DNA from: Candidatus Heimdallarchaeota archaeon
GTDB lineage: Archaea; Asgardarchaeota; Heimdallarchaeia; JABLTI01
Length of the DNA stretch: 64,000 bases
Assembly: GCA_018238155.1 (NCBI GenBank)
Contig: JABCTZ010000026.1
Coordinates: forward strand, 148,269 to 212,268
Reading direction: 5' to 3'
Part shown: positions 14,949-24,179 of the stretch, piece after piece
Numbering within the stretch: the first letter of the stretch is position 1
How the letters are laid out: every line of letters begins with the position of its first letter
The notes under the pieces: generated by a model
What the model saw: the letters and a program-made list of their open reading frames with translations, nothing else
Databases searched by the model: none
What the model was told of the DNA's origin: nothing
Position numbers and translations under genes: made by a program

Positions 14949-17900
14949 TTATGATTCCAATGCTTTTTCCACTACTTCTTCACAAGAAATTTCTCTTAAA
15001 ACTTCCTTAATGATATCAGGAGGAATCTCTAGTTTAGTTGCAATTTTCATTGGGTCAAACATTGGATCTTTCTTTCGCTCTTTTTTCGCTATTAGAGAAA
15101 TCTCAGCTTTCAACCGTTCGATAGAAAAGAAAATTGTCTGAGTGTTATTTAATACAGACATATAAAATGATGATTTGAATTCCCTTCGAATAATAGATGC
15201 AGCATCATTTGGTTGTATTTGAAACTCTTTCACAAGATTATCGACTTCAATCCGACCCCAAAGCTCGAATTCTGAATAAAAGTAATCCCGGATAATTTTG
15301 ATTTTTTGTAGAGAAATAAAAACATCTTTGTTTACTAATTGTCCAGCTATTTTTCGCCTATTTACCAAACTTTGGATAAGATATTCTGATAATGCTAATG
15401 ACCGATCGGTTGTTGAGAATATTGTTCTATCAAATATTCCCTTAAGTGATAAATCATAAACAATTCTATTTCTTATTGAATTCATAATTCGTCTAATTCT
15501 TCCATGTGAAACAAACGGCAGTGCAGCAATAACATTCCAAGCTTCATCTACTTCTGATTTATTGATCAACTTGAGTGTCTTCGAGATGCTTTTCAAGAAC
15601 TTTGACTTTTTCATTTCTGTTAATTCCATTACCCTCAAGAAAATGGTTTCCAATGAGTCCATGTCGCAACTTGCCATTCTATTTACAGCAATCTTGGTTA
15701 GCAACTCTGTTATTATTGATTCAGTGTTTTTTCTCGTGTTAACTATTCGAATATACTTCAACAAGGCATTATCATATGCATTTGCTGCTTCCTTTACTGC
15801 GCCAATATCTTCCAGCGTTTTTCCAGCTAGAGAAATAAATTTGAAGGTTAGATTTGAGGGTATTCGTGGTTGATCAATAAAAGCTATTCCTCTGTTGAAA
15901 CATTTTGTAGCAATTTCTTGAGCTCGAGGATAAGCTTTCCGACGAATCGCTGAATCAGATGCAATTTGATAACACTTATAGGCTATTGTTACATCTGCAT
16001 CCCATTCTCGCGTTTGGAATATTGTGCTAATCAATCTGCTTGAGCTTTCTTCATCTTTTGCATGATCAAAAGCTTCTACTGCGATTTCATAGAAATCCAT
16101 TGCTTCGTGAATTTTTCCATCACGAATAACTTTATCACCAGAGTTCAGAGCAAACATGCCAATGTTTCTTAATTCAGCGTCTATACCTAATTCACTGTTC
16201 AATTTGACAGCTGCTTCTGCAAAAGCCATTGAATCAGAGTATTTTTTCTTTTGGAAAAGTTCATTTGCAGTTTTGAAAACTGACGCTGCATAATGAATTG
16301 CTTTATTTCTACTCACTAAATCAATTAATATTATGCCGGCATGCCTAAACTTATATGAAGCATCTTTGTTCCCTTTTCGAAGATATTTCTGTTCATTCTT
16401 CTCTACATCAACTAGTATCTTCTCTAGCTGTGCTTCATTTCTTGTGAGAGCTAATATTCGCATTAATAGTTCCACAATTTTCTTACCCAAAGAATAATTA
16501 TTTTCATTTTTGGATAGTTTTTCTCCTAAACTGATTAATGCTTCAAGATAATTGCCTATTTTTTCATAAGTCACCATTGCTTTGTTTGAATTTGGCACTT
16601 CGAATGCTTCGAGACCATCAATAATGTCCTCAAGTGTAGAGAGAGCTGTTCGAGGGTTTTGTATGAATAACTGTTTGGCGAAATCCAACATTGCCATTGT
16701 TGTAGTTTCCATTAGTAAATCACTTTGAGTTCTAATAGAAATATCTCGTGCGGTTAACAATGCCTCGTAACCTCTTATCGAATGAAAGTTATTGATGAGA
16801 TCTTTTGATCCAAGTTTAACGAATTCAAAACCAACTTTTTCTATATATTCAATACTATTATTTTCCATATACATTTGATAGCTAAATCCAAGCATACGGT
16901 AACTAATGTCTAATGGCGTTTCAGGATTGAATTTCGAAATTTGTTCAAAACATTCATCTCCAATGTGCAATAATAATTCAGGTATTTGTTCTTCTAAGGC
17001 GATTTTCACTGCGAAATCTAAGTAGAAGTATCCAAGCGGTGAAGAACTGTTCGTCAAAATATCAGCATTTGCTCGTTTCATCAACAATGAAACTAATAGC
17101 GAAATCTTTTCTAGGTCATTTGTTTTCTTGAAAAATTCAACAGCATCTCGAGTAATTTTTCCAATCATATTCCATTCTGCAATGATTGTTGCTTTTAGAG
17201 CTTCAATATATGTCTCAGCAACTTTTTCATGCATTAATTCAACAGCAATTGGATTGTTTGTTATTAATTCGAGGACCTTTGCTCCTGCAAGAGAATGCTT
17301 GTTTCTAATCGTTTCTAGGGCCAGAGTAAAACTTAAATTAATAATTCTAGTGTTTTCTTCAGGATCAGGACTGCTCGTTGCTAAATCAAATGCTCTGTTT
17401 AAGAAGAAAATACCAATTGATGATTTTCTGTTTGGGAGATTTTTACCTGCTGCATTTAAGTAAATAGTAATTATTGATGCAAGCAAATCAAATTGCCCTA
17501 TTCGTTCGACTAAAATTCTACCGCGTTCTAAAATATGAACTGCTTTGGTTAATTCATTTCGTTCCATTAATTTTCGAGCAGAATCAATTGATTGCTTTGT
17601 TGATACAGATGCCGATTCAGCATTATTATCTTGCAGATAGTAATTAACTGCATCTTCAGAATATTTAATTGAATCTTCAATTTTCTCTGCACTAAAGTAC
17701 ATTGCAGAGACGATGGAACAAATATCTCCTGCCCTTGTGAAAGCTTTCGCACTATCAAAAAGATGAATAGCCATAATATAAATCTCTATAGCTAAAGAAG
17801 CATTACTATTTGTTGTTTCAGATCCTTTCTTATATGCAATTTCACCTAACTCTATACAACCAACAATGTTTTGAGCTTGTTTTTCAATCTCAACTGCTTT

Positions 17901-22004: not shown

Positions 22005-24179
22005 TTAAATCGATGTTTCAGGTGGAGGAGGCAATGGAGTTAACATTCCATTTTCGAGATATTTAATTAACACTTTTAGAACATCTTCTTTCGGGATATT
22101 AATTTCCCCTTGTTGATAAATAACATCAATTAATTCTGTAACATAAAATACTTCATCATCAGTAGTTTTCAGAAAGTCAGTGTAAGCTTTTGCAATCATT
22201 TTTTCATGCTGAGAAACTGCAGTAAGTCTCATTCTTTTTACATCTATTTTTAATGGGTAAAGATATTCTATTCGAAGATGTTTTTCTAAAATATCTGTAG
22301 AACCTGAAAAAGTAGATATGAAACCATTGAATACCTCTAATTCATCAGCAAACTTTTTCTCAAATTCTCGCATAAAGATTGTGATTCTTTGCTTCAGCAA
22401 TGGACCTAATTTTTCACCTACTAACAGAGCAGCTTTTGATTTATGACCTTCATATATTAAAATCCAAAAGCCTTCTCTTCCAATTTCGCTGAAAACACCG
22501 TATCTCTTTTCAGTTTCACCAGCCATCTCTTCAGTAAATGTTCCAACTGCACTTAAGAAACCACTTGTTAATGAAACATCAATTTCTTTTCCAAAACCCT
22601 GACTAAATAGTGGGACACCAGAAAATGAATGAATGAGAATTACGTGTTTTATTTTTAAAATGTCATTGAAAAATTCTGCCCCGGCATCCAAATCAGATTC
22701 AAGGTCTAAGGGAATATAATATTCCTCTTCAATTTCCTCAAAGACTTCTTTATCTTCTTGCCATTCAAGCTCTTCGGGATTGCTAATTGCTGCTAATGAA
22801 CTACCAACTTTTGATTTAATTTTTTCAATATCAGCTTGTATGTTTTGGTTAGATGTTCCAGATTGATTAGAATATGGCTGATAAGAAGAAGAATCATAGG
22901 GAGTTCCAATTGGTTCATAGGGGCTGCTATGAGATTGTGGATTAATGGTCTTTTTTGTTTTTGATTCTATTTTTTGTTTGTTTACTGGAGCAATATACTG
23001 TCTGCAACTATAACAATAGTATCGTCTATACTGTTCTATAAATCGTACTTGGGATTGACAATTTGGACAAAAGGCATTACTTGTATCAGGTTTCATAGAT
23101 TGTCCGGAAGGATCACTAGCCACTTGTTGTGCAAGCTCTCTTTTTCCACCATAAGGAATGAGATCAGCATTTGGTTTTTCTTTACCTTTATCTCTAACCA
23201 TATTGAATGCAATAATTCTTCTTTTATCAATTGAGAATACCAAATCATTCATCCGATTTCCATTCAAATCGCCTACTTTTAAATCAGCGATATTACCATA
23301 TCCATCATAGCTTTCTATTGTATTTGAACGCAGAATATGAAACATACCTTTAGACGTACCAACAATAATCTCTAATAGTCGGTCATTGTCTACATCAGAA
23401 ACTGTTCCACTAGTTATTATTCCATCAAAATTATGGACAGACATCAATTTACTTCTTTTGAAAATACTTAATCTTCCGGAATATTCCCCGACAATTACTT
23501 CCGTTATCCCATCTCGATCAAAATCACCGGCAAAACAGAAGCTAGGTTCAGTTTCAACTTGAAATTCACCTACTAAATCAAATTTCTGAAGTTGAGGACG
23601 GAATTCAATTTCTTTAAATATACCATCTTTGTCAGCAGCAATAAACCCTGCTTGTCCATTACCATTGAAATCACCAGTCACTATTTGAGTGACCGCTTTT
23701 GAGAAAATTCTTCCAAGAGAGAATCCTCTTATTTGATTCCACCTTTGTTTTTTCCCAGGGATTCTTTCAACCATAACTACTTCGCCGTTTTGACATCCTA
23801 CAACTATTTCTGAAAGTTTGTTACCATTTAGATCTCCAGGTGCAGAGCTAATTATACCTGAAGGTAAACGGATGCCATCTTTGATATCTTTAGTAAAGAA
23901 AGGTTTTCCATTTCGAGCATTTATTCTAATTACTCCCTTATAATCACCAGTTACTAGTTCAAAATTACGATCTAAACTTGTTTGTGCTATACAAATTGTA
24001 TTGACAGTTTCATTTATTTTAACAACATTATTTGAGAGTTGTTTAGGATGGATTATTCCAATTTCTGTACCATTCTTCACTATTCGTGCAACGAGTATTT
24101 CAGATATACCATCTGCATTGAAATCATGTGTAATTAGTGAATGGAAATTTTCTGTTACTAATTCAAGTGTTTGTTGCAC
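22005..24179 (-). CDS. FG-GAP-type beta-propeller + Zn ribbon + longin + winged-helix-like fusion protein
   Basis: DFNADGISEI, GDLNGNKLSEI, GDFDRDGITEV repeats with no signal peptide; CPNC..YYCYSC; longin motif ILIHSFSGVPLF...SGFLSAVGTF; ends PLPPPPETSI. Confidence 0.78.
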   Translation of the reverse strand: MQQTLELVTENFHSLITHDFNADGISEILVARIVKNGTEIGIIHPKQLSNNVVKINETVNTICIAQTSLDRNFELVTGDYKGVIRINARNGKPFFTKDIKDGIRLPSGIISSAPGDLNGNKLSEIVVGCQNGEVVMVERIPGKKQRWNQIRGFSLGRIFSKAVTQIVTGDFNGNGQAGFIAADKDGIFKEIEFRPQLQKFDLVGEFQVETEPSFCFAGDFDRDGITEVIVGEYSGRLSIFKRSKLMSVHNFDGIITSGTVSDVDNDRLLEIIVGTSKGMFHILRSNTIESYDGYGNIADLKVGDLNGNRMNDLVFSIDKRRIIAFNMVRDKGKEKPNADLIPYGGKRELAQQVASDPSGQSMKPDTSNAFCPNCQSQVRFIEQYRRYYCYSCRQYIAPVNKQKIESKTKKTINPQSHSSPYEPIGTPYDSSSYQPYSNQSGTSNQNIQADIEKIKSKVGSSLAAISNPEELEWQEDKEVFEEIEEEYYIPLDLESDLDAGAEFFNDILKIKHVILIHSFSGVPLFSQGFGKEIDVSLTSGFLSAVGTFTEEMAGETEKRYGVFSEIGREGFWILIYEGHKSKAALLVGEKLGPLLKQRITIFMREFEKKFADELEVFNGFISTFSGSTDILEKHLRIEYLYPLKIDVKRMRLTAVSQHEKMIAKAYTDFLKTTDDEVFYVTELIDVIYQQGEINIPKEDVLKVLIKYLENGMLTPLPPPPETSI

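Follow-up and report, generated by a model that had tools for sequence, protein, structure and literature searches.

A soluble FG-GAP propeller protein with a Roadblock/longin-type tail module, and the giant TPR-class protein encoded beside it, in one family of Heimdallarchaea

Forerunners of the trafficking and signalling machinery of eukaryotes are being sought in Asgard archaea. Here we describe two neighbouring genes from one of them, a Candidatus Heimdallarchaeota archaeon (assembly GCA_018238155.1) with a genome of 4.08 Mb, 91% complete and of about 32% G+C. The genes lie on contig JABCTZ010000026.1 (C20 in our numbering), within a stretch of 64,000 nucleotides (positions 148,269 to 212,268) that we call the window and from whose first nucleotide its coordinates are counted. 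Gene 1 encodes a 724-residue protein with an FG-GAP propeller, a zinc ribbon, a disordered linker and a Roadblock/longin-type module; gene 2 encodes a 2306-residue protein of the TPR class. An earlier reading of this DNA, made from sequence alone, had taken the pair for a proto-coat or tether complex of a propeller-longin fusion and a SNAP-like solenoid.

Both are real genes, as the many orthologues with almost invariant lengths indicate. Gene 1 has 28 relatives (57-89% identity, 708-728 amino acids [aa]), all in metagenome-assembled genomes labelled Heimdallarchaeota or Asgard. Gene 2 has 22 (39-86% identity, 2302-2306 aa), and an alignment of 17 of its sequences fits in 2310 columns. Hydrophobic segments are absent from both proteins: the highest Kyte-Doolittle mean over 19 residues is 1.35 for gene 1 and 1.67 for gene 2, on a scale on which the transmembrane (TM) helices of relatives score 1.9-3.3, and both N termini are hydrophilic. 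The open reading frame (ORF) coordinates bear out the two co-oriented genes 135 bp apart that had been described, and the hydropathy values agree with the claim that neither product has a signal peptide or TM segment. The anatomy of the two proteins is secure (Table 1).

Table 1. Genes, protein regions and intergenic spacer at the locus (window coordinates)
Feature	Position	Strand	Residues or size	Basis
Gene 1	22005-24179	minus	724 aa, GTG start	
FG-GAP beta-propeller, seven blades	23190..24179	minus	1-330	Pfam, AlphaFold model, VIA, Foldseek
Four-cysteine zinc ribbon (CPNC...CYSC)	22986..23084	minus	366-398	invariant Cys, model
Disordered linker rich in P/Y/S/Q	22713..22985	minus	399-489 (about 90 residues)	pLDDT, conservation
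Acidic motif Y-x-x-P-x-D-x-E-x-D	22692-22721	minus	487-496	invariant residues
Roadblock/longin-fold core	22353..22691	minus	497-609	model m88819f2d5a6c, Foldseek, VIA
Helical connector and winged-helix-like end	22032..22352	minus	610-716	DSSP pattern, weak leads
P-L-P-P-P-P tail	22020..22040	minus	714-720	invariant in 24 orthologues
Spacer between the genes	21870..22004	minus	135 bp	alignment of eight orthologous spacers
Gene 2	14949-21869	minus	2306 aa	
Degenerate TPR/SNAP-like helical repeats	16200..21869	minus	1-1890	Pfam, sub-profiles, Atlas
C-terminal non-repeat region	14952..16199	minus	1891-2306	conservation 0.76-0.86

The head of gene 1 is an FG-GAP-type propeller, as had been proposed. 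Pfam FG-GAP (PF01839) scores 51.2 bits against a cut-off of 22.1 and FG-GAP_3 (PF13517) 48.8 against 26.9, and an AlphaFold model built on 24 orthologues has 28 strands making seven four-stranded blades over residues 1-328, six of which carry loops of the D/N-x-D/N-x-D/N-G type. In its predicted fold the propeller looks like those of BBS2 and ITFG2, which are cytoplasmic and FG-GAP-like. Foldseek against the PDB ranked KICSTOR chains first (9v80_B, E 3.6e-13, TM-score by target 0.67), followed by BBS2, BBS7, BBS9 and BBS1, with ordinary WD40 propellers within three orders of magnitude. In structure comparison with VIA, where rows within 1 Z count as tied, the best match was BBS2 (6vbu_2; Z 31.6, root-mean-square deviation [rmsd] 2.5, 295 residues aligned, 13% identity), ahead by about 3.5 Z. 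The runners-up (BBS1, KICSTOR chains, BBS7 and many WD40 proteins) are tied at Z 27-28, with unrelated WD40 propellers at about 27.6, and the ITFG2-type match is one of those tied in Z with WD40 propellers.

The likeness to the BBSome therefore has to be read with care. The BBS families stay below their Pfam cut-offs in gene 1 (BBS2_Mid 20.5 bits against 27, BBS2_N 12.8 against 26.3, Beta-prop_BBS7 20.1 against 27), as does Itfg2 (13.9 against 27). The same weak BBS2_Mid, BBS7 and Itfg2 signals occur in extracellular, membrane-anchored Asgard FG-GAP proteins (P0060 at 2.6e-11; P0064), and they therefore mark the FG-GAP class rather than a specific BBSome or KICSTOR ancestry. Gene 1 shares with BBS2, BBS7 and BBS1 a seven-bladed, FG-GAP-like cytoplasmic propeller; unlike in BBS2 and BBS7, what follows it is not a coiled coil, a GAE domain and a platform domain but a zinc ribbon, a linker and the tail module. 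A preprint (October 2026) describes one "BBS7/ITFG2" structural cluster common to Asgard archaea and eukaryotes and previously in a published catalogue of eukaryotic signature proteins. The main text of the Nature Microbiology 2026 catalogue has no mention of BBS, ITFG2, propeller or longin.

The zinc ribbon and the disordered linker of the sequence-only reading were both recovered. Four cysteines (C371, C374, C389, C392) are invariant in the 24 orthologues, the region forms three short strands in the model, and Pfam Zn_ribbon_19 matches weakly (2.6e-4, below cut-off). In the linker, residues 401-486 have a predicted local distance difference test score (pLDDT) below 50 and the lowest conservation of the whole protein, with a conserved GSPY motif in which P420 and Y421 are invariant. 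The linker ends in an acidic motif, just N-terminal to the tail module, that is specific to the gene 1 orthologue group and in which Y487, P490, D492, E494 and D496 do not vary.

Conservation in gene 1 is highest in the core of the tail module (0.89-0.97). Folded as residues 490-724 on an alignment of 47 diverse relatives, the module gave a model with a pLDDT of 90.5 and a predicted TM-score of 0.86. Its core has the order a-b-b-a-b-b-b-a (DSSP: H8-19, E21-28, E34-39, H46-64, E73-79, E82-88, E92-98, H104-120), which matches the Roadblock/LC7 topology a-b-b-a-b-b-b(-a), and short helices and a helix-helix-helix-strand end follow. Foldseek returned MglB, AP-2 sigma, the RagA C-terminal domain, LAMTOR and Asgard Roadblock proteins at E of about 1e-4. 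Exhaustive comparison with VIA gave the Lokiarchaeal longin 8yqg_B (Z 11.8 over 133 residues), Prometheoarchaeum Roadblock3 9jue_D (Z 11.4), the longins of Fuzzy and VAMP7 (Z 11.2; 4afi_B 11.2) and MglB 3t1r_A (Z 10.3), the top longin and Roadblock rows being effectively tied. Longin structures thus score as high as Roadblock ones; the alignment runs into extra C-terminal helices, and an N-terminal helix is present. By the topology rules that separate Roadblock from longin domains in Asgard archaea (PMC10933270), the N-terminal helix makes the module Roadblock-like and the extra C-terminal helices make it longin-like. Judged on the predicted structure, then, the label "longin" given to this domain earlier is right at the level of the superfamily (Z 10-11.8). 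More narrowly, the domain is equally a Roadblock one, by its N-terminal helix and by MglB at the top in Foldseek.

At the level of sequence, the module profile gave chance-level matches only among PDB sequences. A Pfam scan of 47 module members found no common family and, among the families listed, no Robl_LC7-type family at E<=1 and no NPR2 or NPR3; the sole marginal match was MAPKK1_Int (0.061). The GATOR1 chain 8fw5_C reaches Z 8.8 over model residues 20-153 only, with the C-terminal part unmatched. That part had been called winged-helix-like, which is right at fold level in that DSSP gives three helices and a strand pair. The ESM Atlas structure row includes HTH_47, and feature leads below 0.8 point to Mnd1, DsrD and MarR-type winged helices; the assignment is thus a putative one, drawn from a secondary-structure pattern and weak leads, and the connector and end taken by themselves gave no match to a solved structure. 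The extreme C terminus is more distinctive. P715, P717, P718, P719 and P720 are invariant in the 24 orthologues, and PLPPPP is specific to their group, the wider module family ending merely in G-x-L-x-P. Such a polyproline tail might serve as a ligand of the profilin or SH3 type.

The module extends far beyond gene 1. Its profile matches 590 clusters at E<=1e-3 among 1.84 billion cluster representatives, in proteins of 200-2640 residues, and 230 of 400 Asgard genomes have a match. Of 62 members examined, 46 have a strongly hydrophobic helix upstream of the module, at a distance of 10-65 residues (mostly 15-25), and many of these 46 also begin with a signal-like segment. The ectodomains of such receptor-type members include FG-GAP, LVIVD, SBP_bac_5 (solute-binding), MG2 (macroglobulin) and TSP3, and two paralogues in the source genome have the same receptor layout. 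The family is large, uncurated and found only in Asgard archaea, and its normal location is the cytoplasmic side of the membrane, in single-pass surface proteins. This makes gene 1 one of its rare soluble members. Of the 400 genomes searched in the phylum, those with the full propeller-to-tail architecture all belong to the genus of the source genome (10 of 10 genomes). Some TM-less members carry other partners: two clusters are fused to Ras-family GTPases (P0058, P0062) and several members to HerA/FtsK-type ATPases. In the source genome alone, the module profile matches about 28 ORFs. A 209-aa ORF in the window (63261-63890, minus strand) matches the Roadblock/longin core of the profile at E 7.8e-7. 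On another contig, a soluble 425-aa protein (L004:604-1881, minus strand; G000:C17) has the module core first and then several winged-helix-like units, and two Ras-family GTPase genes lie 3-5 kb from it.

Comparison with known proteins suggests what such a module might do. An asCOG survey (10.1101/2020.10.19.343400) and PMC10933270 describe Asgard Roadblock/longin proteins with lineage-specific domain shuffling and GTPase fusion. Multidomain proteins of this kind (PDB 8yqg, 9jue, 7yh1) belong to the same fold superfamily as the module (Z 9.8-11.8), and the module family shows the same habit of shuffling and GTPase fusion; it differs from them in joining an N-terminal Roadblock helix with extra C-terminal helices and a winged-helix-like unit. 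The literature searched contained no example of the module fused to a zinc ribbon and a cytoplasmic FG-GAP propeller. MglB, the Roadblock GTPase-activating protein (GAP) of bacterial MglA, heads the Foldseek matches (6izw_C, 6h5b_B, 6hjm; E about 1e-4), has a VIA Z of 10.1-10.3 and shares the a-b-b-a-b-b-b-a order. Here the differences are an identity of about 20% over 120-150 columns with a high rmsd, the helical and winged-helix extension of the module inside a 724-residue protein, and the lack of an mglA-like neighbour of gene 1. Because of these fold relatives and the fusions to Ras-type GTPases, the tail is most likely, by analogy, a dimeric platform on which a small GTPase docks or is regulated.

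Gene 2 is of another kind. Pfam SNAP (PF14938) reaches 47.7 bits against a cut-off of 25 (1.9e-12), spread over five partial stretches, and TPR_12 and TPR_2 also pass; sub-profiles find at least eight weak internal repeat copies, the core compares to TPR-clan clusters at 0.93-0.94 in the ESM Atlas feature search, and the repeat region is low in proline (1.2%). From these sequence signals, residues 1 to about 1890 may best be described as a degenerate solenoid of the TPR class, and the SNAP-like helical-repeat solenoid of the earlier reading was right at fold level. The likeness to alpha-SNAP and TPR solenoids lies in the Pfam match and the TPR-like core. Gene 2 differs from alpha-SNAP in that the SNAP signal amounts to five partial stretches in 2306 residues, that no solved SNAP was found by profile (E<=0.01), and that NSF- or SNARE-related context is absent.

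The last 400 residues or so are the best-conserved part of gene 2 and probably consist of helical and winged-helix-like units. Profiles of the whole protein and of the C-terminal region found nothing among PDB sequences at E<=0.01; a weak Atlas lead (0.83) connects the C terminus to a cluster in which 19% of members have PCI. No match to the C-terminal profile was found outside one family (f1) among 201 well-assembled Asgard genomes, and none to the whole protein outside that family within the Heimdall class. All genomes of the family also encode a distant paralogue of gene 2, which in the source genome has 2308 aa, 19% identity and a related C terminus (L015:7149-14075, minus strand; G000:C1). 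Both genes are found in this one Heimdall-class family only; the pair is a lineage-specific invention, not an Asgard-wide or ancestral system.

Taking the two proteins together, we give about an even chance to the proposal that gene 1 is a soluble adaptor with a GTPase-docking platform, possibly scaffolded by the TPR protein of gene 2. The propeller and zinc ribbon would form a binding head, connected through the flexible linker to the Roadblock/longin and winged-helix-like module. By analogy to MglB, the C-terminal domains of LAMTOR and Rag proteins, and the longin subunits of guanine nucleotide exchange factors and GAPs, we infer that the module dimerises and docks or regulates a small GTPase, for which the roughly 40 Ras-family GTPase genes of the genome would be available clients. 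Gene 1 would thus be a receptor-independent version of a signalling tail otherwise carried by surface proteins. Gene 2 would be a lineage-specific, 2306-residue scaffold with a conserved C-terminal head, offering a platform for the adaptor. That gene 2 in fact contacts and scaffolds gene 1 is a more tentative suggestion, which we think has the odds somewhat against it; the evidence for it is the conserved adjacency of the two genes. When the propeller and the module were submitted to interaction prediction along with the last 417 residues of gene 2, the score was 0.31, against a mark of 0.32, and 0.00 in a second run, a result that weighs neither way.

Several observations weigh against this adaptor proposal. 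The pair has no canonical Ras-family gene in its vicinity (on this contig the closest is about 150 kb away), and the flanking genes are those of transporters and oxidative-stress proteins. (A Pfam search of the first 30 kb of the window likewise found no GTPase partner.) The paralogue of gene 2 has no propeller or Roadblock partner; its neighbours encode a beta-CASP-type RNase, a GHMP kinase and a glycosyltransferase. The fusions to HerA/FtsK-type ATPases mean that the module is not tied to GTPases alone, and its winged-helix-like end, if the model is right, might contact nucleic acid. Gene order across the entire block is the same in relatives, with the thioredoxin gene upstream and major facilitator superfamily (MFS) and ABC transporter genes downstream. 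The adjacency of genes 1 and 2 is therefore no more than the general synteny of close relatives would give, and it is weak evidence of a link. Finally, a conserved element in the spacer, followed by a T-run, suggests separate transcription units.

In the strongest alternative, the two genes are independent, lineage-specific neighbours, adjacent merely through the collinearity of the block; gene 1 would work by itself or with partners other than gene 2, and gene 2 would be a general TPR scaffold. We consider this quite possible, at rather less than an even chance. Besides the shared flanks, it can draw on the most divergent relative (57% identity for gene 1, 39% for gene 2), in which the order is kept and one glyoxalase gene stands between the pair; on the unrelated neighbours of the gene 2 paralogue; and on the spacer, with its conserved block, T-run and separate ribosome-binding box before gene 2. 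What it explains less well is that strand, order and a gap of 135-154 bp are kept in 10 of 10 genomes of the genus although gene 2 falls to 48-54% identity, and that the two genes share the same narrow phyletic range. The adjacency on which the earlier reading leaned is in any case kept in relatives rather than lost. Apparent absence of gene 1 from a sister genus that has gene 2 was rejected as a counterexample: that genome is 75% complete, the gene 2 orthologue is cut by a contig end, and the contig of 5576 bp ends where gene 1 would be expected.

In the alignment of orthologous spacers, a block of about 30 nucleotides (21968-21986, minus strand, and the T-run after it) reads CTACTAAA..TTAT.AGT and is far better conserved than its surroundings, and a GAGG or GGGG box precedes the start codon of gene 2. 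The block could act as a promoter, as a terminator or as the site of a regulator. With 0 mismatches allowed, no second copy of it occurs in the window or elsewhere in the genome, and it is not a repeated genomic motif. Taken together, the features of the spacer fit a separate promoter or terminator as well as they fit an operon.

In another alternative, the module would be a dimerisation or ligand-sensing unit joined to a DNA- or RNA-binding winged helix, and gene 1 a cytoplasmic sensor-regulator. The winged-helix-like end speaks for this, as do the Atlas structure row, which ties the shape of the module to V4R and response-regulator proteins, and the HerA-type fusions, which place the module in non-GTPase contexts. 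Set against these are the tethering of the module 10-25 residues from the membrane in most family members, awkward for chromosome binding, its direct fusion to Ras-type GTPases in others, and the fact that the nearest solved folds are all GTPase-platform proteins. We judge this explanation unlikely.

The proto-coat, tether or BBSome-like complex of the earlier reading, in which propeller and solenoid form a membrane-associated scaffold that works with small GTPases in shaping or sorting membranes, seems to us very unlikely. Its domain calls are right at fold level, the adjacency is conserved, and none of the findings that it named in advance as refuting it turned up. The best solved look-alikes of the propeller, BBS2 and then BBS1, BBS7, BBS9 and the KICSTOR chains, could be taken in its favour, along with a domain set of longin-superfamily module and TPR solenoid. 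The complex as such, with the pair confined to one family, in separate chains and within a block that is collinear throughout, has no support of its own. Unlike in the protocoatomer systems (COPI, COPII, clathrin, the nuclear pore complex, HOPS), the propeller and the solenoid are on two genes, and gene 1 is without a solenoid. Neither a membrane-binding element nor a coat-type Pfam match above cut-off is present, the BBS and ITFG2 signals are shared with extracellular FG-GAP receptors, and the gene 2 profile found no solved coat, tether, SNAP or SZT2 sequence at E<=0.01. It is because of the separate chains, the missing membrane-binding feature, the generic FG-GAP signal and the confinement to one family that we set this interpretation so low; being restricted to one family, the pair is not ancestral to eukaryotic coats.

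KICSTOR and GATOR1 combine a propeller, a longin-type module and a very large helical scaffold. This parts list (ITFG2, KPTN and SZT2 of KICSTOR; NPRL2/3 of GATOR1) resembles the pair, and one might envision, by convergence or very deep homology, an ITFG2/BBS2-like propeller fused to an NPRL-like regulator of longin/Roadblock and winged-helix type, on a scaffold SZT2-like in role, controlling a Rag- or Ras-type GTPase. We hold this to be the least probable of the explanations considered. Unlike in KICSTOR and GATOR1, propeller and longin-type module are in one chain in gene 1, and the gene 2 profile matched neither SZT2 nor any other solved sequence.

Some further features of the surroundings can be recorded. 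Divergent from gene 1, at 24417-27426 (plus strand), are genes for a double thioredoxin, an ODP-type metallo-beta-lactamase-fold protein, desulfoferrodoxin and rubrerythrin; an oxidative-stress cluster is at the same position in one relative (L010). Two ORFs on the plus strand, 3745-4797 (350 aa) and 4911-6473 (520 aa), have no Pfam match at E<=0.001. Elsewhere in the genome, near-identical 19-mers, CTAC[AG]AAATAATTATCAGT, occur in five copies on three contigs (G000:C28, C31, C35); they point to a repeated element and have no relation to the spacer block.

The locus combines eukaryote-like parts (a BBS2/ITFG2-shaped propeller, a Roadblock/longin platform and a giant TPR scaffold) newly in one narrow lineage, and it cautions against reading every pair of propeller and solenoid as a proto-coat. 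Its most informative part is the tail module of gene 1, a more useful lead than the pair itself. The 724-residue protein offers a handy form of the module for biochemistry because no membrane is needed, and the module family as a whole makes a link from surface receptors to small GTPases testable in the closest relatives of eukaryotes.

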